From contig VRUJ01000002.1 in NCBI GenBank assembly GCA_019456165.1, forward strand, positions 54,794 to 118,793: a stretch of DNA of 64,000 bases, written 5' to 3'. The DNA comes from Chloroflexota bacterium. GTDB lineage: Bacteria; Chloroflexota; Anaerolineae; Anaerolineales; UBA11579. The notes beneath the pieces were generated by a model. The model saw only the letters and a program-made list of their open reading frames with translations, had not been told where the DNA came from and ran no database searches. How positions within the stretch are numbered: position 1 is the stretch's first letter; each line of letters opens with the position of its first letter. Made by a program: the position numbers and the translations under genes. Positions 1,931 to 64,000 of this stretch are shown here, one piece after another.

Positions 1931-2104
1931 TTTTTTCCTTGTCTGACGATGTGGATTATTTTATGCATCGTTTTTGATTAAACCTTTACAAGTATGACGC
2001 ATTTGATACCCTGGGTATGAGCTCTGCATTGCTAAGGATTCTCACTTTCGATAATTGGCCTGGGTATCCTAAGAATTAATCGTTTTCCGAGGAGAGTTCT
2101 CCAT

Positions 2105-4633
2105 ATGTTAGATGAAACTGTTCAGGATGAACCAAAACCTGGATTAAAATCAACTCCACCTTTCCCAAAAGATCTTGAAGCTGTTGAATTGACCGAGAAC
2201 GCGCAGCGGGTATTTATGCGTCGTTACGTTAGACGCGGATTGGATGGCCAACCCGTTGAGAATATTGAGGAAACTTTTTGGCGTGTAGCCTACCACGTAG
2301 CACAAGCCGAGAAAACCTGGGAGCGAGATAGTAAAGCAGTTGCCCGCCAATTTTATGACCTATTGGCTAGTAAATGCTTTTTCCCAAATTCTCCCACATG
2401 GACAGGAGCAGGCACGCCTTTAGGGCAGCTAGCCGCTTGTTTTGTGTTGCCTATCCGCGACGATATGGGCAGAGAATCATCCGGAATCTTCCAAACCTTA
2501 CGCGATGCTGCCTTGATCCAACAAACGGGAGGTGGAAATGGGTTCTCATTTTCGCGTTTACGCCCTAAGGGTACGCGTGTACAAAAATCGGCGGGGGAGG
2601 CTACCGGGCCAGTCGGTTTTTTATCAGTCTATGACCAGGCTTTTGGTGAGATTGCCCAAGGCGGCACACGTAGGGGAGCAAATATGGCTGTACTTAGCGT
2701 CGACCATCCTGATATAGCGCGGTTTATCTCCTGCAAGACGAATGAGAATGCAATTACGAATTTCAATATTTCTGTGGGCGTGACAGATGATTTTATGCTT
2801 GCTGTGGAAGAAGATGACGATTGGCTGCTTAGGTTTGTGGATGTAAATTCTCCAGAGTATAAAGGGTTTGACGGCACCCTGAACGAAGCTGAAGAGGCCG
2901 GTATTCCTATAAAGGTTCATAAGATAGTGCGGGCGCGTGATTTGTTCGCCAAGATCGTCCAGCAGGCTCATCACAATGGTGAACCAGGCTTGTTGTATTT
3001 AGATAGCGCCAATCGCCAAAACCCGGTCCCACATCTTTATTCTTTGGAAGCTACCAATCCGTGTGGTGAGCAGTGGCTCGGCCCCTATGAGAATTGCTGC
3101 TTAGGTTCGATCAATTTAGCGCAGCACTTTGGCCTGGACGGTACTGTGGATTGGGAGAAATTGCAGGTAACTGTAGAGCTTGCAACCCGTTTCTTGGATG
3201 ATGTGGTCGAGGTTAATGCTTATGTCTCGGCAGTCCCCCAGTTGAAAGAAGCCGCTTTTCAGGCTCGCCGGATTGGCTTGGGTGTGATGGGCCTCGCTGA
3301 TCTGATGTATTTTGTCGGTATTAGGTACGGTTCCGAAAAGGGCCAAGAATTCGTCGCACAGGTGATGGAGTTTGTCCGCTATCACGCCATGCTCACCAGC
3401 ATCAAGCTGGCCAAAGAACGCGGTCCTTTCCCTGCAATCAAGGGCAGCATTTACGACCCGAAAAATATCTCGTGGCAGCCGCCTGAACCACTTTTACCCT
3501 TCCAAAGAGATTTTGGCCGCCCGAAGATAGACTGGGAGAAGGTTATCAAAGGAATCCGGAAGCACGGAATTCACAACGCTGCACAAACCACTATTGCTCC
3601 CACAGGTACAATTGCAACAGTTTCAGGAAGCGAAGGTTACGGTTGTGAACCAGTATTCGCTCTAGCCTACGTCAGGCATGTGAATGATAACGGCAAAGAT
3701 TTACAGCTAGCGTATGCCAGCCCGCTTTTCGAGCAGGCTCTCGTGGAAGCTGGCCTGGAAGAACCCCTGCGTGTAGAGATTATTGAACGGGTGGTTGCCA
3801 GTGGAAGCTGTCAAGACATTCCCGAAATTCCGGTTTCTATTCGGGATGTGTTCGTGGTCTCTGCAGACATCCGCGCTGAAGATCACATCAAAATGCAGGC
3901 AGCCATGCAATCTTTCGTGGATAATAGCCTTTCGAAGACCATCAATTTCCCAGCTTCAGCCACAGAAGAGGAAGTAGCTGCTGCTTACCTGTTGGCTTGG
4001 AAACTAGGTTGCAAAGGCATCACTGTTTACATAACCGGTTCGCGTGAAACAGTGGTTTTAGAGACGCATGCAACCGCTGCGGCCAAAATTGACCGCAAAG
4101 ATCGTGTGTTGTGGAATGAAACCAAGAAACCTCGTCCTCAGGTCCTTCGCGGCCACACTTTCAATATCGAAACACCCTTGGGAAAAACTTTTGTCACAAT
4201 TAATGAGAATGGGGAGAACCATCCTTTTGAGGTATTTGTCAATACTGCAAAAGCGGGGTCGGAAACAGCCGCGGTTTCAGAAGCAATCGGCCGCTTGAGT
4301 TCATATATTCTCAGATTAGCCTCACCTATCCCACCGCGCGACCGGCTCAAAGAGATCTACCACCAATTAGCTGGAATTGGCGGCGGTCGGCCTCTGGGCT
4401 TTGGACCTAACCGGGTGCGTTCACTGCCCGACGGTGTTGCCCAAGCTGTGGATGCTTACCTGCAAAAAACTGCTGGTGAAGAGACTAAACAGCCAAGCAC
4501 CAATGGGGACGCTAATCTCTTGAACCGGGCTGCCCTGATCAAGGGAGATTTGTGCCCAGATTGCGGCCAGGCGGCTGTGGTCAACGAGGAAGGCTGCCGG
4601 AAGTGCTATAGCTGCGGCTTTAGTGAGTGTTAG
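2105..4633 (+). CDS. nrdJ: Class II (adenosylcobalamin-dependent) ribonucleotide reductase with C-terminal TSCPD domain and zinc ribbon
   Basis: PNSPT, ACFVLP, GGGNG, NPCGEQ, TIAPTGT, SKTIN motifs; C-terminal CPDC...[15 protein letters not shown]; no R2 gene adjacent. Confidence 0.95.
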
Positions 4634-8463: not shown

Positions 8464-9114
8464 TCATCCACGCGAATAAACGATCACTTGCCAAAATCCT
8501 AAGAAACCGCTGCGTGTGTAGTAATTCCGCCCAAAATCATTGGCCTTTAGAATATCTTCCACCAAAGCAGTGGGATGTGCAAAACTGCGAAACGGGTTAC
8601 CCGTAAGCGCTAGAAAAAAATTAGCGATTTTAACGGCTGCTTTTATCCACCTTGTGTCATATGGAAATATCAAACCGTAATATTGCTTCGCCTTGGCAGC
8701 GGAGGCTGACACTAATGTGCGCATATCATCATAGCAGCAGATCACTTTATCAAGCGTCACGATATCAGCATCTTCTACCTCAGGGGAGAGGTCGACAAAA
8801 TCACCGTGCAGGAAATTGGCTCGTTCACCGTGTCCTTGTCTTTGAGCTTCTTTTCTAGCAGCCGCCGCATATGCGCTGGAAGCATCCACGCTAGTTGACT
8901 TGGTGATACCGTTTTTGAGCATCTCATGTTGGATGTCTCCTATTCCGCCACCAATGTCGAGTAAGGTCATATCTTGAACTCCAAGAGATATAAGTGTTTC
9001 GATCAATAAGCTTGTGGATTTAGCAGGGCCATCTCTGTGGTAGCGGAGAAGCTTTTTCGCAGCAGTTTTTTCCCCAAATTCTCGTTCAATCCCTTGGCAT
9101 TGAGGGCATGTCAT
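8464..9114 (-). CDS. Class I SAM-dependent methyltransferase
   Basis: LLDIGGGIG motif I, GDF, DIVTLDKVICCY; N-terminal CPQC. Confidence 0.85.
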   Translation of the reverse strand: MTCPQCQGIEREFGEKTAAKKLLRYHRDGPAKSTSLLIETLISLGVQDMTLLDIGGGIGDIQHEMLKNGITKSTSVDASSAYAAAARKEAQRQGHGERANFLHGDFVDLSPEVEDADIVTLDKVICCYDDMRTLVSASAAKAKQYYGLIFPYDTRWIKAAVKIANFFLALTGNPFRSFAHPTALVEDILKANDFGRNYYTRSGFLGFWQVIVYSRG

Positions 9115-9199
9115 AAGCTAAAAACTACCACCGGAAATATTTTGGGCTATTTACAAAAAAACATTTCTTATTCAATAGCTAATCAACAATCCTAATTCC

Positions 9200-9991
9200 T
9201 TAAAGCGTCCCCTTATACATACCGCCATCTACGGGCAGCATCACCCCGGTTATATACGAAGCAGCTGGGGAAACTAAGAAAACAGCCGCGTTGGCGAATT
9301 CCTCAGGTTTGCCCATACGGCCCATTGGGCTACCATCGGATTGAGCCTGGATTTCGTCTTCCACATTTGTGCCCTTCTGTTCGGCGCGCTGGCTCATCAA
9401 TTCATAGACACGTTCGGTTTCTGTCCACGAAGGCAGAATGGAGTTGAAGCGGATACCCTCTGATCCGATTTCCAATGCTAAGGTTTTGGTCAAACCTATT
9501 GTAGCAGCACGTATACTATTAGAAAGTACCAGGTTGGGGATTGGCTGCTTGACGGAAACAGAAGTGATCGTCAGCACGCTGGCAGATGAGGATTTGCGTA
9601 AATGGGGCAGCGCTGCACGGATCAGACGTACATGGCTGAGAAATGAAAGATCAATCGCTTTTTGCCAGGTAGGCTCATCGAAAGATTCGAAAGGACCCGA
9701 AGGTGGTCCGCCCGCATTGGTTACCAAGATGTCTAATCCGCCCAGGGCCTGCACAGCTCCTGCAACCAGTTTTGCAGGTGTATCTTGCTCGGTTAGGTCA
9801 CCAGGCAGCGTGTGAAGCTCACATTCGATTTCTTCTTTCAGAGTCTTTGCGGCAACCTCTAGTTTATCTTTACTCCTGCTGTTGATCGCGACACGAGCGC
9901 CTTCCGAAGCTAATTGTCGCGCGGTTGCGTAACCTAAACCCCGGCTTGCTCCGGTAACCAGAGCGCGTTTACCATCAAGCTGTAGATCCAT
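9200..9991 (-). CDS. SDR family oxidoreductase
   Basis: TGASRGLG, NAGG, SNSIR in place of YxxxK, YITG...VDGG. Confidence 0.93.
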   Translation of the reverse strand: MDLQLDGKRALVTGASRGLGYATARQLASEGARVAINSRSKDKLEVAAKTLKEEIECELHTLPGDLTEQDTPAKLVAGAVQALGGLDILVTNAGGPPSGPFESFDEPTWQKAIDLSFLSHVRLIRAALPHLRKSSSASVLTITSVSVKQPIPNLVLSNSIRAATIGLTKTLALEIGSEGIRFNSILPSWTETERVYELMSQRAEQKGTNVEDEIQAQSDGSPMGRMGKPEEFANAAVFLVSPAASYITGVMLPVDGGMYKGTL

Positions 9992-10245
9992 TTAAACTCC
10001 TTCTTGTAGTATGTACCTGTTTAAAGTAGATTGCGGAAAAAATATTAAATAGCGTTGAATGCTTCGCCAACTATAAGGGTATTCATTCTCTACGAACAGA
10101 ACCACAATCAATTATAGTAACCGTTTCAACCAAATTTTATTAAGTTACTTTCAAACGGTTACCTAGTCTAGCATAAATCAAGGGAATTGCAATCTGGGCT
10201 GGCATGTCTACCGCAAAAAGGTTATCATAATCTCTTGAGAATATT

Positions 10246-10983
10246 ATGACCCAACAAACCCAACTCTTCGTAACCTGCCTGGTAGATAGCCTATTCCCTG
10301 AAGTTGGGGTTGCGGTCGTGGAAGTGTTGACCAGGGCTGGGGAAAGTGTCAGGTTTCCTCGGGCACAAACATGCTGCGGCCAGCCTGCCTTCAATTCTGG
10401 TTACCAGCAAGAAGCCAGACGGATGGCGCAGCATACATTGGAAGTATTCGGTGCTACTGATGGCCCGATTGTGTTACCTTCCGGTTCGTGCGCCGCAATG
10501 CTCGTGCATGGCTATATTGAGCTGTTCAAAGAGGATCCTTTTTGGTTGCCGCGCGCCAAAGCGCTAGCCGCACGCACTTATGAATTTAGCCAATATCTTG
10601 TTGATGAATTAAATTATGTCGAGACCAGCGCATTTTTCCATGGGAGTCTAGCTTTCCATCCTTCTTGTCACCTACTGCGCGATCTGGGTGTGGAAAAACA
10701 GCCTATCAGTTTGCTTGAACAGGTGAGGGGAGTCCAGATAAAGCCTCTGGAAGCGGAGTGTTGCGGTTTTGGTGGGGCTTTTTCGATAGATCATGAGGTC
10801 GTTTCATCCGAAATGCTCTCTCGTAGGTTGAGCCAGGTGGGTGAATCCGAGTCCCAGGTAGTGGTATCTTGTGACGTGAGTTGTTTATTGCATATTGAGG
10901 GCGGCTTGCGTAAGCGCGGCTCAAAGGTGCGGTGTGCACATCTGGCCCAGATCTTAGCTGGTAAATCGGCAGGCTTAAAGTGA
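10246..10983 (+). CDS. lutA: Lactate utilization protein A (CCG-domain Fe-S subunit)
   Basis: FVTCLVD, QTCCGQP, PSGSC, HPSCH, CCGFGG. Confidence 0.88.
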   Translation: MTQQTQLFVTCLVDSLFPEVGVAVVEVLTRAGESVRFPRAQTCCGQPAFNSGYQQEARRMAQHTLEVFGATDGPIVLPSGSCAAMLVHGYIELFKEDPFWLPRAKALAARTYEFSQYLVDELNYVETSAFFHGSLAFHPSCHLLRDLGVEKQPISLLEQVRGVQIKPLEAECCGFGGAFSIDHEVVSSEMLSRRLSQVGESESQVVVSCDVSCLLHIEGGLRKRGSKVRCAHLAQILAGKSAGLK

Positions 10984-21008: not shown

Positions 21009-21722
21009 GTGTTTATGGATAATTCAAGAAACTGGGTTCTAGTGATAGGCATTCTTGGGATCTTGTCTTGTGCGGGTTTTTTCGTAGTTAGGACGGTCAC
21101 AAGCATAACCGGAGCATTTGATAATTTCTTAGGTCCCGATAGTGTTATCGGCGAGCAAACTAGCAAACTGAGCACAGAAATTGCCCAGGTGTTGAACCCC
21201 ACCCCCACTGTATTACCAGACCCTGTAACGATTGTCCATGAAGTGCGCTCTTTAGCACAACTCGTCACGATCCGATATTCACTTGAAAAGATTATTACCG
21301 CGGAAGTCGGCCAAGGTGCTTTTGGCTGGCTGGTCGGCGATCGGTTACTGTTCGTCGCCCATGGGGATGTCAGCGCTGGGATAGATCTAGCAAAGCTGGA
21401 CCCATCAGATTTACGCGTAGAAGACAGTGTGCTTTACGTCACATTGCCCGCCGTAGAAATATTTGTTGCGACTATTGATAACGATGAATCGTATATCTAT
21501 GAAAGGGATACAGGGCTGTTGACCAAGGGAAACGTCAATTTAGAAACAGCAGCTCGCCAGGCTGCCGAGGAAGAAATCCTCAACTCTGCTCTGGAATCTG
21601 GGATATTGGACCAAGCGCGTGTTAACGCAGAGAATTTTCTGTTTTCTTTCCTACGCAATTTAGGCTTTCCTGAGGTTATCTTCGTTCCTCCACCGACACC
21701 CACACCTGTACGCGCCCCCTAA
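21009..21722 (+). CDS. DUF4230 domain membrane-anchored protein
   Basis: N-terminal TM helix; GDVSAGIDL, VTLP, GILDQARVNAE. Confidence 0.8.
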   Translation: MFMDNSRNWVLVIGILGILSCAGFFVVRTVTSITGAFDNFLGPDSVIGEQTSKLSTEIAQVLNPTPTVLPDPVTIVHEVRSLAQLVTIRYSLEKIITAEVGQGAFGWLVGDRLLFVAHGDVSAGIDLAKLDPSDLRVEDSVLYVTLPAVEIFVATIDNDESYIYERDTGLLTKGNVNLETAARQAAEEEILNSALESGILDQARVNAENFLFSFLRNLGFPEVIFVPPPTPTPVRAP

Positions 21723-22543
21723 ATTCTTTCAATCCAAGCTGCATTAATATATTTATCTTTTATTAGCTGTTCTGTTCTGGTTAGTTCATCTCGGCTTAAA
21801 TCTCCCGGAACTAAATTTATTTCAAGATTTTGGCTGAAGGCATCCGCGAAAGTGGAGGCAGCCTCTTCCCATGTTACCTGTTTACCCAGCGCGATTTCAA
21901 CGGTTGTTGCTCGAGCTGAAAGCCTTTGCGCGGCAAGGTGACGTTCAGCATTATTATCGAAAGTTAGTACATCCGTAACCCTTTTTAGATTTCCGAATAA
22001 CGGTAAGCTTCCGTGCTGAAGTATGCCGCTCTGGCGGCGTGCTTGGGCGCTGCCGATCAGTTTTTTCCCTGCGTACAAGATTTCATAGTTCGAGGGGGTC
22101 TCGAAACATATTGGGCCATTTGGGCTGGTTTTCTGTGCGGATTTTGGATTAGGCTCTACCTGTGCAAATATTCCAAGTTGGGCTAATCCTGCCAAGAGGG
22201 TTTGTGATAGACGCTTGTAACTCGTAATAATATCCCCGGCCAGGCGTGGTTCATTTGCTGGTACGATCACAGCATATGTGAGTTCATCTGTGTGCAATAT
22301 AGCACGCCCCCCAGTGATACGCCTGACTACCTCCCACCCGTTATTTTCTAATTTGGAATGGTCAACGTCACTGATTGGCTGCGCATAGCCAAGAGTTAAA
22401 CAGGGTGGCTCCCAGGCATAAAAACGCAAAGTGGGTGATACATCTCCGTTTCCAACAGCTTCCAGGATGGCTTCGTCCACCGCCATGTTCCAGGAACCGT
22501 GTGCTGGGGCGGTTTTTAGCAAGCGCCAGTTTGGTCTTTGCAT
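21719..22543 (-). CDS. Lipoate-protein ligase family (LipM octanoyltransferase-like)
   Basis: NMAVDEA, LRFYAW, RRITGGRAILH, CFETPS, KLIGSAQ, LQHGS. Confidence 0.9.
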   Translation of the reverse strand: MQRPNWRLLKTAPAHGSWNMAVDEAILEAVGNGDVSPTLRFYAWEPPCLTLGYAQPISDVDHSKLENNGWEVVRRITGGRAILHTDELTYAVIVPANEPRLAGDIITSYKRLSQTLLAGLAQLGIFAQVEPNPKSAQKTSPNGPICFETPSNYEILYAGKKLIGSAQARRQSGILQHGSLPLFGNLKRVTDVLTFDNNAERHLAAQRLSARATTVEIALGKQVTWEEAASTFADAFSQNLEINLVPGDLSRDELTRTEQLIKDKYINAAWIERI

Positions 22544-52833: not shown

Positions 52834-54136
52834 GTTAGTGTAACATTGTTTCTGTAATTTCCAAAAAATGATAGGTCAGGTATCCTTTTAGTTGCAAAAA
52901 CAAAAAAGGAGTTACACATGACCTATCAACAAGATTGTACATTACCAGAAGAGTTATTGGAACAGATTGCTACCGATGGATTGGAGGCGCTGCCGGGGTT
53001 GATCCGCATTCTGGTCAACGAAGCAATGAGGCTGGAGCGAGAGCAGCATCTCGGAGCGGGCGCGTATGAACGCACTCCAACGCGGCGCGGCTATGCCAAT
53101 GGCTATAAGCCGAAGACGATGAAGACCCGTCTGGGAGAGATCGAATTCTCGGTGCCGCAGGCACGGGAAGGCGACTTCTACCCGGATGCGCTGGAGAAAG
53201 GGCTGCGCAGCGAACGTGCCCTGACGCTGGCATTGGCAGAGATGTATGTCCAGGGCGTTTCGACCCGGCGAGTGGCAGCGATCACCGAACAATTGTGTGG
53301 CATAGCGGTGAGCAGCTCGCAGGTCAGTCGCGCAACAGGTCTACTGGATGAAGTGCTGGAAGCATGGCGTAACCGACAACTGGGTGAGATCATCTATCTG
53401 TACCTGGATGCCCGTTATGAGAAGGTGCGCATAGATGGGCAGATCCGTGATGCAGCCATTTTGATGGCTGCAGGGGTGGGCGTAGACGGGAAACGGCGGA
53501 TTTTAGGCGTCTCCGTCTCGCTGAGCGAAGCACAACTGCACTGGCGGGCATTTCTGGAGAGCCTAATTGAGCGCGGTTTGAGGGGTGTGCAGCTGATCAT
53601 CAGTGATGATCACAGTGGATTGCGCAAAGCCCGCCAGGCGGTGTTTACCGGCATTCCCTGGCAAAGGTGCCAATTTCATTTGCAGCAGAACGCCAGCCAA
53701 TATGTGCTGCGCAAGAAGATGCTCAAAACGGTCGCAGCAGACATTCGAGCGATCTTCAATGCGCCCGACCGTGAGCAGGCTGAGGTCTATCTACGGCAGA
53801 CTGTCCTTAAGTATGCAGATAGTGCTTCTGGCCTGGCTGACTGGCTAGAAACTGCCATTCCGGAAGGGTTGACCGTGTTCAATTTTCCTGAAGAGCATCG
53901 ACGCAGAATCCGGACCAGCAATGTGCTGGAGCGGGTCAGTCAGGAAATCAAACGGCGGACGCGCGTGATTCGTATCTTTCCAAATGAGGCATCGTGCTTG
54001 CGATTGGTGAGTGCGGTCTTGATGGAGATCAGCGAAGATTGGGTGACGGGTAGAATATACTTGAACTTCAAATCAGGCTAAAGCTTGCCCGACTAAAAAG
54101 GGCTTGACCATTTTACAGAAAAGATGTTGCACAATC
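52834..54136 (+). mobile_element. IS256-family insertion sequence
   Basis: Imperfect TIRs GTTAGTGTAACATTGTTTCTGTAA / GATTGTGCAACATCTTTTCTGTAA; no matching TSD. Confidence 0.9.
52918..54081 (+). CDS. IS256 (Mutator-like) DDE transposase
   Basis: EMYVQGVSTRRV, YLYLDA, ISDDH-x-GL, WQRCQFH, RTSNVLER, FPNEAS. Confidence 0.97.
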   Translation: MTYQQDCTLPEELLEQIATDGLEALPGLIRILVNEAMRLEREQHLGAGAYERTPTRRGYANGYKPKTMKTRLGEIEFSVPQAREGDFYPDALEKGLRSERALTLALAEMYVQGVSTRRVAAITEQLCGIAVSSSQVSRATGLLDEVLEAWRNRQLGEIIYLYLDARYEKVRIDGQIRDAAILMAAGVGVDGKRRILGVSVSLSEAQLHWRAFLESLIERGLRGVQLIISDDHSGLRKARQAVFTGIPWQRCQFHLQQNASQYVLRKKMLKTVAADIRAIFNAPDREQAEVYLRQTVLKYADSASGLADWLETAIPEGLTVFNFPEEHRRRIRTSNVLERVSQEIKRRTRVIRIFPNEASCLRLVSAVLMEISEDWVTGRIYLNFKSG

Positions 54137-55194: not shown

Positions 55195-56034
55195 TCACCC
55201 CTCATTTCGGAACTGCAAACAATAATGGTGGAAGGTGTTGCTCACCCAGGCGTTACCCATGCCGTAGGGCGCCAGGCGGATATTATCCTGGCACCAGATC
55301 TTCTCATCCTTGAGGGTGTAGGTTTCACCCAACTGGCGCGCAAGATCCCAGGCAAGAGGGTAGATCACACCTCCCTTCTTCACATTCTTGACGATGATGG
55401 TGAGATAAGCGCGCTCGCGCAGCAGCGGTTTCAATCCCGCGTAGATCGCTACCAAATTTTGCATGAAATTTTCGTAATCATCCATATTACCCAAATCTTC
55501 TGGATCATCCGAATAGGTGATATCCAGGTCTGGCGCGGCGCGTCTCTTTTTCTGGGTTTCAGCGCCGCGCGCTTTCAGCATATTCCAATATGGAGGCGAG
55601 GTTATCACGTAATCGATCAGCGGCAGGTCAAATCCGGCTGCACCTTTGGCGTTGGCGTTGATAACTTCAGCAACCAGGTTATGAGCATCCTTGCCCAAGG
55701 AAACGCGCTCTTCACCAACTACATCCTGGGCAATGCGGGCGTACTCAGGGTTAAGCTCGATGCCGTAACTATTCCTTCCAGAGCGCAAAGCGGCTACCAA
55801 TGTGCTGCCTGTGCCCACCATCGGGTCCAGCACGTTCTGACCTGCTTTGGTAAAGAACTCGATAAATTCCTGCACCAGGGTTTCGGGGAATTTGGCAGGA
55901 TGGCGCAGCACATCTTTGCGCCTGGGGGGAGGGTTGTGCACAAACCAAGACTTCTGGAATTTCAACCAATCACGGTTGCTGAGATCATTCATTTTATTGA
56001 TCAACTTGCGTTTCGTCGGTTTGGTTTTACTCAT
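55195..56034 (-). CDS. Orphan amino-DNA methyltransferase (N4-C/N6-A type)
   Basis: HPAKFP, VLDPMVGTGST (motif I), TSPPY (motif IV). Confidence 0.85.
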   Translation of the reverse strand: MSKTKPTKRKLINKMNDLSNRDWLKFQKSWFVHNPPPRRKDVLRHPAKFPETLVQEFIEFFTKAGQNVLDPMVGTGSTLVAALRSGRNSYGIELNPEYARIAQDVVGEERVSLGKDAHNLVAEVINANAKGAAGFDLPLIDYVITSPPYWNMLKARGAETQKKRRAAPDLDITYSDDPEDLGNMDDYENFMQNLVAIYAGLKPLLRERAYLTIIVKNVKKGGVIYPLAWDLARQLGETYTLKDEKIWCQDNIRLAPYGMGNAWVSNTFHHYCLQFRNEG

Positions 56035-56035
56035 C

Positions 56036-56794
56036 TCACTGCTCCAAAATTTGGCGTACAACCATGTCGGTGAAACTCACCGTGACGGGCGTTTCTCCAG
56101 CGGTGCGCACAAAGACTCCCAGTGTTCCAGTATACAAGACGGTATCGCGCGCGCTGAAAAGGAATTGGTCGTTGACGAAGAAGCGCATCTGATCTCCATT
56201 AGCCCAGACTGCTAAGCGGCTCGTGCTCAGCGCTCCAGGAGTTATGACTCCGTGGGATATCCAGGGAACAACTGAAGATATTTGACCGTCAAAAAAACGA
56301 TCCAAACGCGCTCGTCCATCGCATGACAAGGAGAAACGATAATATTCCAAAGAGCTTGAAACCCGCACCAACAAGCCATATTCGTCAGCGCCAACGCAGA
56401 GGCTTGGTTTGGCGTTAATCTCAATATAGAAATCTGCGAAAACCGGCTCATTGCGTGTTGAAAAAAGGAAACTTCCGGGTTCCGATAAGGCTAAAGTTAG
56501 ATGATTGTTGATTATAGATACGCTGCTATTGCCGTTAGTCACCAAAGACCAGGCTTCCCCTGAATCGAAATCGTCTTGCAGGAGCGTCTCCCCCTGCCCT
56601 GGCCGCAAGTCTTCCGTGGGCGTGATAACGGGTGAGGGAAACACTGTTGGCGTACTGGTAGGTGGAAACCACACTATGGTTTCAGTAGGGCTTGGAAGAG
56701 CTGTGGGGGTATCGGTCGGAAAAGCGGTTGTTACAGGCGGTGAACATGCGGACAGATAAACCAGCGCGAGCAGGTGAACGATTCGTTTCATCAA
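56036..56794 (-). CDS. Lipoprotein with Pro/Thr linker and LamG/DUF1080-like beta-sandwich
   Basis: Lipobox LSAC; DDF...W, YGLLVR, FFVND, GTLGVF. Confidence 0.7.
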   Translation of the reverse strand: MMKRIVHLLALVYLSACSPPVTTAFPTDTPTALPSPTETIVWFPPTSTPTVFPSPVITPTEDLRPGQGETLLQDDFDSGEAWSLVTNGNSSVSIINNHLTLALSEPGSFLFSTRNEPVFADFYIEINAKPSLCVGADEYGLLVRVSSSLEYYRFSLSCDGRARLDRFFDGQISSVVPWISHGVITPGALSTSRLAVWANGDQMRFFVNDQFLFSARDTVLYTGTLGVFVRTAGETPVTVSFTDMVVRQILEQ

Positions 56795-58280: not shown

Positions 58281-58958
58281 ATGGCGAAACAAAAAGGTGA
58301 ACTAAAAGATAGGCACAAAAAGATTCTTGATGTCCTCGAACGCTACCAAAATACCGTCGGATACCCTCCATCTATCCGAGAGATCGGCAAAGAAACTGGC
58401 ATTACGTCTACTTCGGTAGTAAATTACTACCTCAACCAGCTCGAGGATTGGGAATTTATTGAACGAGATCGTAAAGTATCCCGCGGCCTTCGATTAACCA
58501 AAACAATAAAGAGCATTATTGATGAAATGATTCAGATACCACTCGTCGGTATGATTGGCGCTAGCGAACCTGTTCCCGTTCCAGGCTCGGACTTTAACTA
58601 TTACGATCCCGAATCCAGCATCGACGTTGCTCGCAGCTTACTGCCTAAAAGCGATCAAGGCAACCAGCTCTATGCACTGGAAGTCGATGGCGATTCGATG
58701 ATTGATGCCATGGTCAACGATGGCGATATCGTAATTATGAAATACACCCAGGAAGCTCGCGATGGTGAAATGGTCGCGGTGAGGTTAACCGACAAAGAAG
58801 AAACCACTCTCAAATTCTTTTACCGAGAGAACGGTCATGTGCGCCTGCAACCCGCAAATCCAAGCATGGAGCCCATCATTATCGAAGACCCCAGCACAGT
58901 AATGATTCAAGGCAAAGTGGTGTTAGTCATCCGGCAACTTAGCGGCAAGCCAGTATAG
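58281..58958 (+). CDS. lexA: SOS repressor LexA
   Basis: GYPPSIREI wHTH, GDSM (Ser) and TTLK (Lys) dyad; cleavage site region reads GAS rather than AG. Confidence 0.96.
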   Translation: MAKQKGELKDRHKKILDVLERYQNTVGYPPSIREIGKETGITSTSVVNYYLNQLEDWEFIERDRKVSRGLRLTKTIKSIIDEMIQIPLVGMIGASEPVPVPGSDFNYYDPESSIDVARSLLPKSDQGNQLYALEVDGDSMIDAMVNDGDIVIMKYTQEARDGEMVAVRLTDKEETTLKFFYRENGHVRLQPANPSMEPIIIEDPSTVMIQGKVVLVIRQLSGKPV

Positions 58959-59067: not shown

Positions 59068-59727
59068 GTGACAGCACACTTATTTCCTCCGGATGTCCCA
59101 CCTGCTAAACGCATCTTTGATTTGGTGCTCTTGCTGCCGGGTATCATCTTAGTTTCTCCCCTGCTAATAATAATTGCATTATTTATACGAATTTTCCACG
59201 GCTCGCCTGTGCTCTTCCGGCAATCCCGTCCAGGTTACCGAGGCGAATTATTCACTCTGTATAAATTTCGCACCATGACCAACGCCCGCGACACTCACGG
59301 CAATATGTTAGAAGATTCTGAACGCATGACTACTCTGGGCCGCTTATTGCGCGCTACAAGCCTGGATGAGCTGCCTGAGTTGTATAATGTCTTACGCGGG
59401 GAATTGAGCCTAGTAGGACCACGTCCTTTGCTTGTCCAATACCTGGAGCGCTACACCCTTGAGCAAGCCCGCCGCCACGACGTGCTGCCGGGCATAACCG
59501 GGTGGGCGCAGATCAATGGGCGCAATAATGTTTCCTGGGAGAATAAATTTTCCCTGGACGTATGGTATGTTGATAACTGGTCCCTTTGGCTAGATATTAA
59601 GATATTAGCGCTCACTCCTTGGAAAGTACTCGTGCGTGAAGGCATCAATGAACCGGGAAACGCCACAGCCAGAGAGTTTATGGGCACACAAAGCAATCCT
59701 CAGCATGGTATTGAAAAACCAGGCTGA
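59068..59727 (+). CDS. Monotopic phosphoglycosyltransferase (PglC-like sugar transferase)
   Basis: KRIFD, KFRTM, SLDELP, LVGPRP, PGITGWAQ. Confidence 0.93.
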   Translation: MTAHLFPPDVPPAKRIFDLVLLLPGIILVSPLLIIIALFIRIFHGSPVLFRQSRPGYRGELFTLYKFRTMTNARDTHGNMLEDSERMTTLGRLLRATSLDELPELYNVLRGELSLVGPRPLLVQYLERYTLEQARRHDVLPGITGWAQINGRNNVSWENKFSLDVWYVDNWSLWLDIKILALTPWKVLVREGINEPGNATAREFMGTQSNPQHGIEKPG

Positions 59728-59770
59728 AGACCTAACCCGAAAGAAAAGACCCTAGTATAATTCCACCCGT

Positions 59771-60661
59771 ATGCCAGACGACCAAGCTCTATATCGCGGC
59801 TTATACCGCATTCGCCGTTTTGAAGAAACCGTATTGAATGAGTTTTCCAGCGGTTTATTTTACGGCACAACACACACCTACCTTGGGCAAGAAGCTAACG
59901 CCGTTGGGGTATTAGACCACTTACAAAAGGAGGATATCGTTTTTAGCAATCACCGCTGCCACGGTCATTTCATCGCTTACGGAGGTGACCCGCGCGCCCT
60001 CTTCGCCGAATTAATGGGCAAAAAGACAGGGGTCACTGGAGGGCGTGGAGGCTCTCAGCACATCCATTGGAAAAACTTTTATTCCAATGGAATCTTGGGC
60101 AGCACGGTACCAGTTGGAACTGGGGCAGCCCTGGCAGAAAAATTCAAGGACAGCAACGCAGTAACGATTATCTTTTTAGGTGATGGAACTTTGGGCCAGG
60201 GAGTGGTGTACGAATCCTTAAACCTGGCTTCGCTATGGGACGTTCCAGTATTGTTCGTGGTCGAAAACAACCGCATCGCCCAAACTACGCCTATTGAGTT
60301 AGCGGTCGCCGGAGAAATCCCACCACGATTTAACGCTTTTGGTATCCCCACTACTGAGCTAAACACGAGCGACGTGTGTGAAATTCTGCCCACTGCGAGA
60401 GAACTCATCGCGGAAATCCGCGGCGAAGCTGCTCCACGCGCTTTGATACTGCATACACATCGCTTTGGGCCACATTCCAAAGGTGATGATACTCGTCCAG
60501 AAGAAGAAATCAAGCGCTTACACGCTAAGCATGACCCTATAAAAATCCACGCTGAACGCCTGGATAAGAACGCGCGCACTATTATAGAAACTGAAATTGA
60601 CGCTCAAATTTCTGAAGCTTTTGACCTCGCAAAAAATGACCCTTTGCCCGCATACATCTAA
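59771..60661 (+). CDS. TPP-dependent dehydrogenase E1 alpha subunit
   Basis: GQEA, HRCHGH, GDG...ENN TPP motif, RFGPHS. Confidence 0.93.
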   Translation: MPDDQALYRGLYRIRRFEETVLNEFSSGLFYGTTHTYLGQEANAVGVLDHLQKEDIVFSNHRCHGHFIAYGGDPRALFAELMGKKTGVTGGRGGSQHIHWKNFYSNGILGSTVPVGTGAALAEKFKDSNAVTIIFLGDGTLGQGVVYESLNLASLWDVPVLFVVENNRIAQTTPIELAVAGEIPPRFNAFGIPTTELNTSDVCEILPTARELIAEIRGEAAPRALILHTHRFGPHSKGDDTRPEEEIKRLHAKHDPIKIHAERLDKNARTIIETEIDAQISEAFDLAKNDPLPAYI

Positions 60662-60706
60662 AATGAAAAGTTATTTATAAACACACTTGGAAACCAATTA
60701 ACAACA

Positions 60707-61729
60707 ATGTCAACTGTCCTCGAATCCCTCAACACCAGTTTGCACCAGGCGATGACGCGGGACGAACGCGTCTACATGATAGGTGAGGATCTAATGGACC
60801 CATATGGTGGAGCATTCAAAGTCACGCGTGGGCTTTCCACAGAATTCCCAGAGCGCGTGCTCACCACACCTGTATCCGAGGCCGGCATAGTTGGTTTAGC
60901 AGGTGGTATGGCGCTGCGCGGTTTGCGTCCAGTAGTCGAGATCATGTTTGGCGATTTCATAACTCTTGCCGCTGACCAACTCATCAACGGTATCACCAAA
61001 TTTCATTGGATGTATAACCAACAAGTGAATGTCCCCATTGTGGTGCGTTTACCGATGGGAGGGCGCAGAGGATACGGCCCAACCCACAGCCAGACCCTAG
61101 AGAAACTTTTCCTTGGAGTGCCCGGTCTGCGAGTTCTGGCGCCTAGTGCGCTAGGAAACCCTGGGGATTTGCTTGAGAGGGCCATACTTGAGGATGATGG
61201 TCCCGTGTTGTTTGTTGAAAACAAACTGCTCTACCTCCAGGATATTATCGATCCGTCGGCTGAGGCTGAATTTGTTTTAATTTCAAATACTACGACAGAG
61301 ACTTACGCCCCAACGTACTCTCTTACTCTGAGAGATTCCCCACCGCCAATCCTTACCCTAACGGCCTATGGATATATGGCCGAGTTAGCCCGTGCCGCGG
61401 TATTGAAATTGGCATACGAACATGAAATTTTCTGCGAGATGATCGTGCTCACCCAGCTATCTCCATTTGAATCTAAAACCCTTCTACCTGTACCCTTACT
61501 AACTTCAATCCAACGTACCCAGCGATTATTAACTATCGAAGAGGGCGGCATTACAATGGGCTGGGGAGCAGAAGTGGTCGCCCGCGCCTCCGAAGCAGTA
61601 GGAGACGCCCTGCAAAGTGCCACGCGCGTCGCCGCAAGAGACATACCCATCCCTGCTTCTGTATCAATGGAAGAGATGGTGCTGCCTAGCGTAGATACCA
61701 TTGTCCAGGCTGCAAAAAAGATGGTATAA
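60707..61729 (+). CDS. TPP-dependent dehydrogenase E1 beta subunit
   Basis: GED, TPVSE, EIMFGDF, GYGPTHSQ, FVENK. Confidence 0.93.
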   Translation: MSTVLESLNTSLHQAMTRDERVYMIGEDLMDPYGGAFKVTRGLSTEFPERVLTTPVSEAGIVGLAGGMALRGLRPVVEIMFGDFITLAADQLINGITKFHWMYNQQVNVPIVVRLPMGGRRGYGPTHSQTLEKLFLGVPGLRVLAPSALGNPGDLLERAILEDDGPVLFVENKLLYLQDIIDPSAEAEFVLISNTTTETYAPTYSLTLRDSPPPILTLTAYGYMAELARAAVLKLAYEHEIFCEMIVLTQLSPFESKTLLPVPLLTSIQRTQRLLTIEEGGITMGWGAEVVARASEAVGDALQSATRVAARDIPIPASVSMEEMVLPSVDTIVQAAKKMV

Positions 61730-61738
61730 CCAGGTACG

Positions 61739-62845
61739 ATGTCTGAAGCAAATCCTGTAATTATCCCCCTTTTGAATACCAATGAGCCAGAAGCATTACT
61801 GGCCGGTTTACATATAAGCGAAGGGCAGCAAGTGAACCAGGGAGATATCCTCTGCACCCTCGAAACCACAAAATCCTCAGCAGAAGTGGAAGCCGAAAGT
61901 GACGGCTATGTGGTTGGGGTCGCATACTCGCAGGGTCAAACTGTGCGTGCTGGAGAAACCTTGTGCTACTTAGCAGATTCTCCTGATTGGAAGCCTGCTC
62001 AGAATAAACTCGCCACAGTTACTTCAGAGACAACCGACGAAATTCCAAATGGTTTACGCATCACTGCACCAGCTTTAGCTTTTGCAAAAGAACAAACCTT
62101 AGACCTTGCCAGCCTGCCCATCGGCCCATTGCTCACCGAAAAGGCAGTTCGCGATCTGCTGGATGGGCTAGCAGCCAAGCCAAACCTTTCTGCGCCAGAA
62201 GACCCTTATGACCCCAAGGCTATCGTAGTCTATGGAGGCAGCGGGCATGGAAAATCGGTGATCAACCTTTTACGGGAGCTAGGTACATATGATATCCATG
62301 GGGTTATCGACGATGGCATGCAAAAAAAATCTCCCGTTATGGATTTGTCAATCTTAGGGGGTAGTGAAGTTTTGGCAGACTTGTTCTCCCAGAAAATAAG
62401 ATTAGCCGTAAACGCAGTAGGCGGGATTGGCGACAATAAGATCCGAGAAAAAGTATTCAATAACTTAGCCACAGCAAGATTTTTCTCTCCCACAGTTATC
62501 CACCCTACCGCCTTCGTGGAACCCAGTGCCAGCCTTTCCCCGGGCGTCCAAGTGTTCCCGCATGCTTATATCGGCTCGGATGCAGTCGTCGAATTCGGTT
62601 GTATAATTAACACCGCAGCGATTATTTCACACGATTGTACCTTGGAAGAATACGTGAACATTTCACCAGGAGCAATTTTGGCTGGAGGTGTTCAGGTGGG
62701 CGCAAGATCGCTTATTGGTATGGGCGTCACAATTAATTTGAATGTAAATATCGGGCCGGGTGTGCGCATTGGCAATGGCGCCACGGTCAAATCTGACGTG
62801 CCTGAAAAAGGCTTGGTACGGGCCGGGATGATTTGGCCAAAATAG
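61739..62845 (+). CDS. Fusion of lipoyl domain, PSBD-like segment and PglD/NeuD-type sugar acyltransferase
   Basis: Lipoyl hairpin LETTKS; ITAPALAFAKEQTLDL...LTEKAV; PglD N-domain VYGGSGHGK; hexapeptide repeats with IISHDC. Confidence 0.88.
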   Translation: MSEANPVIIPLLNTNEPEALLAGLHISEGQQVNQGDILCTLETTKSSAEVEAESDGYVVGVAYSQGQTVRAGETLCYLADSPDWKPAQNKLATVTSETTDEIPNGLRITAPALAFAKEQTLDLASLPIGPLLTEKAVRDLLDGLAAKPNLSAPEDPYDPKAIVVYGGSGHGKSVINLLRELGTYDIHGVIDDGMQKKSPVMDLSILGGSEVLADLFSQKIRLAVNAVGGIGDNKIREKVFNNLATARFFSPTVIHPTAFVEPSASLSPGVQVFPHAYIGSDAVVEFGCIINTAAIISHDCTLEEYVNISPGAILAGGVQVGARSLIGMGVTINLNVNIGPGVRIGNGATVKSDVPEKGLVRAGMIWPK

Positions 62846-63032
62846 GTCAGAAAAAGTCGTCTTCCAATACATAATTTGGTTCTAATTTCTTCCAGCTATC
62901 TAAGCAATAAATTGGAAGAGATTCTAACAAGACTTGTAAAAGTCATACCTCAGAGAAAGAGAATTTTGTAATAATCGTTTTAACTCTTAGTATCTATGGA
63001 TAGGTTTGGATGTTAAATAATAGGATATTGGA

Positions 63033-64000
63033 ATGAGAAAGAAGGATCTTTTAATTTTATTAAGGGTTGTCCTGATCATTAGTTTCATTATTACGATTAG
63101 AAATGTTATTTTAATCTATTCCTTAGCAACTGAATATAGATTCATGTTTGCATCTCGGGTCATTACAACAATTGTTGGTCTTGGCATTGTCCTTGCTATT
63201 CTTCAGCTTTCCGTGCTAATTATTAGCTGGACGAATAAATGTGATATTATTTTTCACTGGCTAAGTCTTGGGTATCGTCTTATCAAACCTGGGCGATATG
63301 TCATTTTGATTGTGTATTTAGTAATTCTTGTGCGTTCCCCATACATTTTGAAAGGAGTTTTTTGGGATAATTGGATAGACATTCCCCCACCCCATCGTCT
63401 TTTATCTTTCATTAATGGTTATTTCTCAAACAAACTCTTTTGGCTAAGCGCGTTATGGAGCATCATTGTCGGAGGGGCATTATTATTGGACGCAGCGATC
63501 CCCTGGAGGAAATGGGGGTTTCAACGAAACACGCTATATATATTCCATCTGCTATTAATTGGGTTGGTAACAAAAATTACATCTTTCCTTCCATTAATAA
63601 CTAATTATCCTTTCAATTTAACCTGGTCTGAAGGTAGCCGTCTTTATTTCGTTTCAACTTTTTTTGATAATAAGATCTACGGTGCGGATTTACAGCTTCC
63701 GTTTATCGATATGAGTCAGCATTTACTTCGCACCATTCCATTTTTTATTACAGGGTTGCCAATTTGGGTTCACCGTCTATGGGAAGTAATGCTGTGGTTA
63801 GGACTTACATTCTTAACCTCAGTGTTATTAGCACACCGATTACGAATTAATAGCAGAATAATAAGATATATTTTTATCATATGGTCTTTCTTATTTATAT
63901 TTCAAGGGCATGTAATTTATAACTTGCTCGTGATTGTAATATTGATCTTTTGGGGATTCGACAGGCACAGATTATGGAAATCAATAATAATTATAGTAAT
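63033..64000 (+). CDS. Polytopic membrane protein, possibly GT-C type; runs off the window end
   Basis: Reading frame from ATG 63033 (MRKKDLLILL...YPFNLTWSEGSRLY...LPIWVHRLW), many TM segments, AT-rich; absent from the ORF track, presumably because no stop is reached. Confidence 0.65.
   Translation, partial: MRKKDLLILLRVVLIISFIITIRNVILIYSLATEYRFMFASRVITTIVGLGIVLAILQLSVLIISWTNKCDIIFHWLSLGYRLIKPGRYVILIVYLVILVRSPYILKGVFWDNWIDIPPPHRLLSFINGYFSNKLFWLSALWSIIVGGALLLDAAIPWRKWGFQRNTLYIFHLLLIGLVTKITSFLPLITNYPFNLTWSEGSRLYFVSTFFDNKIYGADLQLPFIDMSQHLLRTIPFFITGLPIWVHRLWEVMLWLGLTFLTSVLLAHRLRINSRIIRYIFIIWSFLFIFQGHVIYNLLVIVILIFWGFDRHRLWKSIIIIV

Follow-up and report, generated by a model that had tools for sequence, protein, structure and literature searches.

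Why should an enzyme of a sugar N-acyltransferase family carry the lipoyl arm of a 2-oxoacid dehydrogenase, and why should it be encoded directly behind an E1 pair of the kind that charges such arms? The question is raised by a four-gene cassette in a stretch of 64,000 nucleotides (nt; the window) from an Anaerolineales genome (assembly GCA_019456165.1, contig VRUJ01000002.1, positions 54,794 to 118,793). An earlier note, made from the letters alone, had described consecutive co-directional genes for a PglC-like phosphoglycosyltransferase, E1alpha, E1beta and a 368-residue fusion, and had proposed that E1 loads an acyl group onto a tethered lipoamide which passes it directly to a nucleotide sugar. 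Four same-strand open reading frames (ORFs) lie exactly where that note placed them, 43, 45 and 9 nt apart, and both coordinates and Pfam/NCBIfam matches agree with the gene assignments. Our analysis supports the interpretation in part; the reading that is best supported is still the mechanism originally proposed, which now stands on firmer ground.

Domain structure and distribution of the fusion protein

The last gene of the cassette (61739-62845, plus strand) encodes a protein of 368 amino acid residues (aa) with Pfam matches to Biotin_lipoyl (residues 22-78, 2.7e-13), PglD_N (residues 162-243, 3.3e-13) and Hexapep (7.5e-14). The lipoyl domain occupies residues 1-80 (61739-61978, plus strand) and includes a putative lipoyl-lysine, Lys45 (codon 61871-61873), in a motif, E42-T43-T44-K45, that is kept in 54/54 aligned fusions, in agreement with the description of an E2-like start with Lys in ETTKS. 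Next comes a probable, diverged peripheral subunit-binding domain (PSBD; residues ~105-145, 62051-62173, plus strand), indicated by hhalign and a complex model and bounded on either side by flexible linkers, and then the PglD/NeuD-family N-acyltransferase core (62219-62845, plus strand), composed of a PglD_N Rossmann domain (residues 161-245) and a left-handed beta-helix (residues ~250-368).

An AlphaFold2 model (54 homologs) arranges these domains like the beads on a string of an E2: the lipoyl barrel (residues 1-80) has a predicted local distance difference test score (pLDDT) of 87-98 and a two-helix module (residues 105-145) one of 82-89, the linkers flanking that module fall below 50 (the first, residues 90-100, being disordered), and the Rossmann domain and beta-helix follow. 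Foldseek matches for the N-terminal half are E2 lipoyl domains (3crk_C, for example, with TMt 0.80) and full-length E2 models, and the same lipoyl domain aligns with E2 lipoyl domains at an hhalign probability of 99.2%; matches for the C-terminal half are the PerB, PglB-ATD, VioB and PglD acetyltransferases (4eaa, 4m99, 7txp, 3bsy).

Sequence comparison of the core leads to the same family. The closest PDB matches are the PglB acetyltransferase domain 4m98 (8.9e-32) and PerB (1.4e-25), and the TIGR03570 score (NeuD/PglB/VioB, 181.7 bits) exceeds the family cut-off of 160.8; on these profile scores the core is a bona fide NeuD/PglB/VioB family member. The fusions conserve PglD_N, the domain that binds the sugar nucleotide, together with its GGxGHGK motif, and have an invariant His298, aligning with the corresponding His of 4m98 and PerB and with the position mutated in PerB H141N (4eaa). 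In PglD the role of general base belongs to His125, according to PMC2943079. A PF00198 catalytic core of the CAT-like kind found in E2 enzymes gave no match in the fusion protein, which is therefore not an E2 family member though it is built like one; the earlier placement of a PglD/NeuD module where the E2 core should be is thus upheld.

One part of the earlier argument is not supported. SHD in place of EHD, Asn in place of the second His, and the missing C-terminal GxPA had been taken as signals of the fusion, but are traits of the clade: SHDC, VN.SPG (with the Asn) and an AG.iWP C-terminus are common to fused proteins and unfused relatives, and in distant fusions His replaces Asn at the VN.SPG position. 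Tandem lipoyl domains or fusions to E1 were sought in 10 longer family members, which showed only longer linkers or tandem PglD modules. Two proteins with tandem PglD-type modules but no lipoyl domain, P0221 (865 aa, with an additional CoA_binding domain) and P0249 (425 aa), represent another elaboration of the same core.

The architecture is conserved and widespread. All three domains are present in 120/120 of the best homologs (55-76% identity, 357-376 aa), which the source databases name only "NeuD/PglB/VioB family sugar acetyltransferase" or "EpsM". A search of 1.84 billion cluster representatives at 50% identity gave 335 matches at E<=1e-30; of the best 150 of these, 133 have both the lipoyl and the PglD part, down to ~30% identity, and the lysine motif in those representatives reads E-[TS]-[ST]-K-[AST]. 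Of 121 genomes sampled evenly across the order, 54 give a match at E<=1e-20, comprising 41 fusions, 9 PglD-only proteins and 4 that are ambiguous or truncated. A protein atlas holds several Chloroflexota clusters, together with clusters combining lipoyl and hexapeptide domains in which Pseudomonadota, Planctomycetota and Actinomycetota are the most frequent phyla, and a profile search seeded with distant fusions reached Pseudomonas sp. CCI3.2 (on a 5.6-Mb contig) and records assigned to Pseudomonadales, Lachnospiraceae and Verrucomicrobiales. Plasmid records yielded only unfused PglD-like matches, in 3 records.

Linkage to E1, catalytic residues and docking

We compared 59 loci from species-representative genomes, 32 of them with full fusions and 23 with an unfused PglD and enough flanking sequence; three further partial loci at contig ends were left unclassified. 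E1beta lies immediately upstream of the fusion in 32/32 fused loci, and E1alpha is present in 30 of the 32, the remaining two being cut inside E1beta by the end of the contig. By contrast, 0/23 unfused loci contain either E1 gene. A set of 80 metagenome loci with distant fusions (30-46% identity to the query) repeats the pattern: E1beta is upstream in 55/57 loci with at least 1 kb of upstream sequence, mostly with less than 90 nt between it and the fusion, and E1alpha is found in 49/51 loci with at least 2.1 kb. The earlier note had allowed that the fusion might be unique to this assembly, or its homologs unlinked to E1 genes; neither is the case.

Other neighbors are less constant. Across 113 fused loci the recurrent neighbors are E1beta (93), E1alpha (56 in the largest cluster), a DegT aminotransferase (36), PglC (26) and an NAD-dependent dehydratase/epimerase (24), so that the conserved neighborhood which had been suggested holds almost always for the E1 genes but only in a minority of loci for the three sugar genes. 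No E3, lipoate ligase or other recurrent partner appeared among the neighbor clusters of these 113 loci (ORFs of at least 90 aa). On the scale of whole genomes, an E1alpha of the cassette type (58-66% identity) was found in 5/5 genomes with the fusion and 0/5 genomes with an unfused PglD, where the best E1alpha match was at most 37% or absent and only housekeeping paralogs were seen; this is a small sample of related genomes and not a statistical test.

The two E1 genes have the features of a heterotetrameric E1. E1alpha (59771-60661, plus strand, 296 aa) is a short form of the thiamine diphosphate (ThDP)-binding subunit, with an E1_dh match (2.1e-57) including the GDG...NN motif, and E1beta (60707-61729, plus strand, 340 aa) matches Transket_pyr (5e-30) and Transketolase_C (1e-12). 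The best PDB match of E1alpha is human pyruvate dehydrogenase (PDH) E1alpha (151.9 bits), and its closest homologs, proteins of ~297 aa, constitute a family under generic names. It is only 35% and 30% identical to the other E1alpha genes of the genome, the 35% being to the one linked to an E2.

Three catalytic positions of the cassette E1 are fully conserved: beta-His127 (58/58), beta-Glu58 (58/58) and alpha-His235 (48/48, in a "PHS" motif). Alpha-His235 is presumably the equivalent of H271alpha of the Geobacillus stearothermophilus E1, an assignment that we base on alignment to human E1alpha, and beta-Glu58 and beta-His127 correspond to E59beta and H128beta of the same enzyme. According to PMC2663715, H128beta is the proposed proton donor in reductive acetylation of lipoate and is kept in all E1s, being Gln or Asn in other ThDP enzymes; H271alpha assists reductive acetylation, and E59beta activates ThDP. 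Conservation of these residues favors transfer onto a lipoyl group and disfavors a plain carboligase role. By alignment, the cassette E1 has lost none of the residues that acylation of a lipoyl group requires.

The earlier note called the middle module of the fusion PSBD-like, a resemblance that profile comparison bears out, although Pfam E3_binding finds no match in the window protein. A profile built for the module on 94 fusion proteins was set against 28 aligned canonical E2s, drawn from this genome and 25 relatives, and landed exactly on the E2 PSBD with an hhalign probability of 95.9% and E 5.7e-9; the reversed profile gave 0.1%, and 30 column shuffles gave at most 1.2%, with a minimum E of 0.045. 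Profile similarity of this kind makes it probable that the middle module is a diverged PSBD, and that the lipoyl-PSBD part as a whole is homologous to E2.

Docking of the module on E1beta is predicted by a complex model built from two copies of E1beta and fusion residues 98-150. The model scores 0.68 (the best of 3 controls scoring 0.00) with a partner pLDDT of at least 82, and three runs share 100% of contacts; the same mark is attained by 58/80 solved complexes and 2/110 mismatched pairs. The predicted contacts run from residues 129-134 and the surroundings of the invariant Arg107 to E1beta residues 208-212 and 236-240, the latter a conserved acidic stretch in the C-terminal domain. PSBD-E1 complexes have already been solved, so the pass may partly reflect memory, and the model speaks for likeness rather than for binding as such.

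How the fused and unfused forms are related is shown by their genomic slots. In Leptolinea-type genomes the order is c9 - c6 - PglD - ... - c1 - c4 - c7, where c9 is a cluster of NAD-dependent epimerase/dehydratases, c6 of 3-methyladenine glycosylases and c1 of DegT-type aminotransferases; in Anaerolinea-type genomes it is c9 - c6 - E1alpha - E1beta - fusion - ... - c1 - c4 - c7. A second slot reads PglC - PglD in some genomes and PglC - E1alpha - E1beta - fusion - aminotransferase in others. A quick maximum-likelihood tree was built from 139 PglD domains, of which 109 are fused, 28 unfused and 2 undetermined, after removal of 1 of 140 rows whose match was too short. Fused and unfused forms intermingle in this tree, with at least 5 state changes, 3 of them forced by well-supported branches, and unfused forms are nested inside a mostly fused radiation. 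Unfused L053, for example, has neither E1alpha-beta nor lipoyl-PSBD and groups with fused L022 and L029 in a clade with 97% Shimodaira-Hasegawa-like approximate likelihood ratio (SH-aLRT) support. With a midpoint root and sampling that started out with fused queries, the tree does not tell gains from losses; either way, gene content and phylogeny indicate that E1alpha-beta and lipoyl-PSBD form a module that is gained or lost as a unit. Fused and unfused orthologs in one slot (L053 versus L022/L029; L036; L035-L057) would be ready-made pairs of controls for glycan chemistry.

A proposed route from 2-oxo acid to sugar

The best reading of E1alpha, E1beta and the lipoyl-PSBD-PglD protein taken together is that they would acylate a sugar from a 2-oxo acid as one self-contained machine, laid out like a 2-oxoacid dehydrogenase complex. 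The fusion would form trimers by way of its left-handed beta-helix core, in the manner of PglD-family enzymes, and would present a lipoylated Lys45 on a flexible arm, with a dedicated E1 heterotetramer recruited by the PSBD. E1, using ThDP, would decarboxylate a 2-oxo acid (pyruvate being the default guess) and then reductively acylate the lipoamide; the S-acyl-dihydrolipoyl arm would enter the acyl-donor tunnel of the PglD core, the usual place of acetyl-coenzyme A (acetyl-CoA), and the core would acylate a nucleotide-linked 4-amino-4,6-dideoxy-hexose on its 4-amino group. A PseC/LegC-type aminotransferase and an NAD-dependent dehydratase, both syntenic in relatives, would supply this sugar; the PglC-like enzyme would load the finished sugar phosphate onto polyprenyl phosphate; and a housekeeping E3 would re-oxidize the dihydrolipoamide. 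We assign a probability of roughly 0.55 to the central claim, namely acylation of the tethered lipoamide by E1 followed by transfer of the acyl group, through the PglD core, to a nucleotide 4-amino sugar.

Several parts of this scheme can be located in the genome. The PglC-like protein (59068-59727, plus strand, 219 aa) has a Bac_transf match of 2.6e-64 (216.5 bits, residues 14-188 of 219 in Pfam) and no NCBIfam equivalog above cut-off; PglC homologs lie upstream of the cassette in 15/32 genome loci and inside 12/80 metagenome loci. Apart from the fusion, no PglD-like gene was found in the genome. Orthologs of two syntenic genes are present, each at 67% identity: that of the aminotransferase is on contig C44, together with c4 and c7 (its best NCBIfam matches, PseC and LegC, are below their cut-offs), and that of the dehydratase/epimerase is on contig C49, together with c6. 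The earlier remark that no normal E2 or E3 is at hand is true of the window but not of the genome, which has two canonical E2s (on contigs C20 and C11, the only PF00198 sites) and a true E3 (553 bits) elsewhere. There are also two BPL/LplA-family genes, one of them in the window: a candidate LplA-like lipoate-protein ligase (21719-22543, minus strand; BPL_LplA_LipB 56.4 bits; NF053750 LplA_large 107.8, below the cut-off of 480), ~37 kb upstream of the cassette. E3 and BPL/LplA-family functions would thus be available in trans.

A number of observations weigh against the scheme and should be stated together. At two fused loci, L100 and L131, E1 is missing from the neighborhood; no alternative type of E1 was seen in them, and their flanks hold the housekeeping genes TsaD, SMC and ThyX. 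The cassette E1 falls under every NCBIfam equivalog cut-off (for E1alpha, 248 versus 393.85 for TIGR03182 PDH_E1_alph_y and 131.9 versus 411.35 for TIGR03181), the motif around Lys45 is E-T-T-K-S where the canonical E2s of this genome and its relatives have E-T-D-K-A, and Pfam E3_binding matches just 1/54 family members (E 0.16), a set that includes the window protein among the non-matches. The aminotransferase and dehydratase sit on other contigs in this genome. The PglD core is very alike in fused and unfused proteins, with no obvious remodeling of the donor site, so CoA could still bind; and if the acyl group is plain acetyl, an advantage over acetyl-CoA is not evident. Lastly, Lys45 lipoylation, direct CoA-free transfer, the acyl group and the sugar are all four things that we infer, from an architecture, a conservation, an E1 linkage, a retention of catalytic residues and a PSBD homology that are themselves computational observations.

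The similarity of the cores bears on a relay through CoA, in which the core would first hand the acyl group from the lipoyl arm to bound CoA and next use the acyl-CoA to acylate the amino sugar; CoA would serve as a catalytic shuttle in a system that is channeled rather than CoA-independent. A core that is nearly the same in fused and unfused proteins probably has an intact CoA site, the closest solved relatives all bind acetyl-CoA or CoA (4m99, 4ea7, 3bsy), and all of the E1-linkage evidence fits such a relay equally well. One active site must then run two different thioester transfers, however, which is less parsimonious than direct transfer. We know of no PglD-family enzyme with a thiol as acyl acceptor, and consider the relay unlikely.

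The unfused relatives, presumably dependent on acyl-CoA, do without E1 in the same syntenic slot, and the module seems to have been lost more than once. These facts, and the ease of acetyl-CoA as a donor, would suit a fusion whose core uses free acetyl-CoA and whose lipoyl-PSBD arm and E1 have another purpose, such as coupling to the pyruvate or redox state, or addition by E1 of a two-carbon branch to a keto-sugar as in AviB1/AviB2 or YerE-type chemistry. Such a role sits poorly with the conservation of the beta-His (58/58) and alpha-His (48/48), which are specific for lipoyl transfer, with the invariant lipoyl Lys, and with the gain or loss of lipoyl domain, PSBD and E1 together; a purely regulatory arm, moreover, needs no dedicated co-inherited E1. 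We regard mere tethering as improbable.

Least credible, and in our view very improbable, is a non-homologous E2 replacement, an acyl-CoA-making 2-oxoacid dehydrogenase with the beta-helix as its E2 core and no sugar involved: the lipoyl-PSBD-core order is indeed that of an E2, and PglD-type cores are trimeric as E2 cores are built of trimers, but PglD_N and GGxGHGK are conserved, the TIGR03570 cut-off is exceeded, the fusion occupies an ordinary PglD slot (with PglC-like or aminotransferase genes adjoining in a minority of loci), and the genome already has two canonical E2s and no other PglD.

Repeated exchange between the fused and the unfused state of one slot would be compatible with an acetyl group, the product then being the same, and equally with diversification of the glycan. 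We entertain only tentatively, as rather doubtful, a fuller version in which the private E1 uses a 2-oxo acid other than pyruvate, the acyl-dihydrolipoamide is a direct CoA-independent donor in a new class of multienzyme, and the resulting unusual N-acyl sugar is a conserved envelope component of Anaerolineales, also present in Pseudomonadota, Bacillota and Verrucomicrobiota; hydroxypyruvate, 2-oxobutyrate, glyoxylate or a ketose phosphate could, for example, be the donor.

We wish to stress what would follow if the proposed transfer were true. The swinging-arm logic of the 2-oxoacid dehydrogenases would have been re-used to feed glycan biosynthesis, in an E2 scaffold that retains the lipoyl and E1-docking domains around a sugar N-acyltransferase core, tying central 2-oxo-acid metabolism directly to cell-surface glycan chemistry, and hundreds of entries named "NeuD/PglB/VioB family sugar acetyltransferase" or "TPP-dependent pyruvate/acetoin dehydrogenase" would be explained. 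To our knowledge it would be the first case of a lipoyl thioester replacing acyl-CoA in sugar acylation. The series of fused and unfused orthologs, and a Pseudomonas record that resembles an isolate genome, make the idea directly testable.

Surrounding DNA and comparison with known systems

Directly upstream of the PglC-like gene is a gene for a LexA repressor (58281-58958, plus strand; LexA_DNA_bind and Peptidase_S24), which is syntenic in at least 7 related loci; its adjacency probably reflects conserved gene order and not regulation of the cassette. Scans for promoters and terminators did not rise above shuffled sequence (9 versus 7.3 and 8 versus 5.1).

On the other side, the last 20 codons and stop of the fusion gene (62784-62845) recur as a 62-nt direct repeat with 90% identity, 2.5 kb downstream (G000:C25:120123-120184, equivalent to window positions 65330-65391 past the window end, and to L063:4124-4185). 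The second copy lies directly after a gene (from 63033) for a 679-aa multi-pass membrane protein without a Pfam or NCBIfam match, and G+C content falls to 0.40 in 62001-64000; the repeat and the gene that it flanks resemble what an insertion at the fusion gene's 3' end would leave behind. The gene that comes after the fusion in relatives is an aminotransferase or a DNA methylase gene. A paralog of the membrane protein (50%) is found beside a PglC paralog (40%) and an epimerase/dehydratase in a second glycan locus on contig C2 of G000 (2057-3022, 8864-9415, 9447-10334).

Two related N6/N4 DNA methylase genes flank the region, at 55195-56061 (minus strand) and L063:7461-8339 (plus strand). The downstream one matches N6_N4_Mtase (1.3e-46), the upstream one has a short tblastn likeness to the same cluster, and a homolog of this cluster (c24) directly follows the fusion in several relatives. 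A 387-aa ORF at 52918-54081 (plus strand) looks, from its translation, like a transposase of the IS256/mutator family.

The cassette is apparently undescribed so far. We found no account of a lipoyl-PglD/NeuD fusion or of E1-fed sugar acylation in the literature covered, which leaves out most subscription journals, so that an earlier account is possible. One apparent match, PMC4875605, was dismissed: in that paper "lipoylation" means fatty acylation.

Three known systems provide the nearest comparisons. With the 2-oxoacid (pyruvate) dehydrogenases the cassette shares a ThDP-dependent E1alpha2beta2, a lipoyl-Lys domain, flexible linkers and a probable PSBD that is predicted to dock on E1beta; it differs in that i) PglD_N and a left-handed beta-helix N-acyltransferase replace the PF00198 core of E2, ii) the lipoyl motif is E-T-[ST]-K rather than E-T-D-K-A, iii) E1alpha is short and no E3 is linked, and iv) the acceptor is presumably an amino sugar, not CoA. 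PglD, PglB, PerB, VioB and EpsM are acetyl-CoA-dependent N-acetyltransferases acting on nucleotide 4-amino-4,6-dideoxy sugars. The fusion has their two-domain core with its invariant catalytic His, and its loci, like theirs, may include PglC-like (26/113) and DegT-type aminotransferase (36/113) genes; unlike them it has ~160 extra N-terminal residues, a co-inherited E1alpha-beta and, as we propose, a tethered acyl-lipoamide as donor.

The third comparison, with QncN/QncL/QncM of quinocarcin and SclQ1-4 of scleric acid biosynthesis, is one of description and subunit size rather than of sequence. As set out in PMC6335953, those systems combine an E1-like ThDP enzyme, a lipoyl domain with an acyltransferase, and an acyl carrier protein (ACP). 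There an E2-type acyltransferase follows the lipoyl domain and the acceptor is the ACP of a non-ribosomal peptide synthetase line, whereas here the acyltransferase is of the PglD type, and with spacers of 43, 45 and 9 nt neither an ACP nor an E2 core can fit inside the cassette. The subunits are nonetheless of similar size (305, 338 and 386 aa for SclQ2, SclQ3 and SclQ4, against 296, 340 and 368 aa here; PMC6335953), and the likeness lies in the plan: in Qnc and Scl, as the same source describes them, and in the cassette as we propose it, a PDH-like E1 and a lipoyl arm build an acyl thioester for a biosynthetic acceptor other than CoA.

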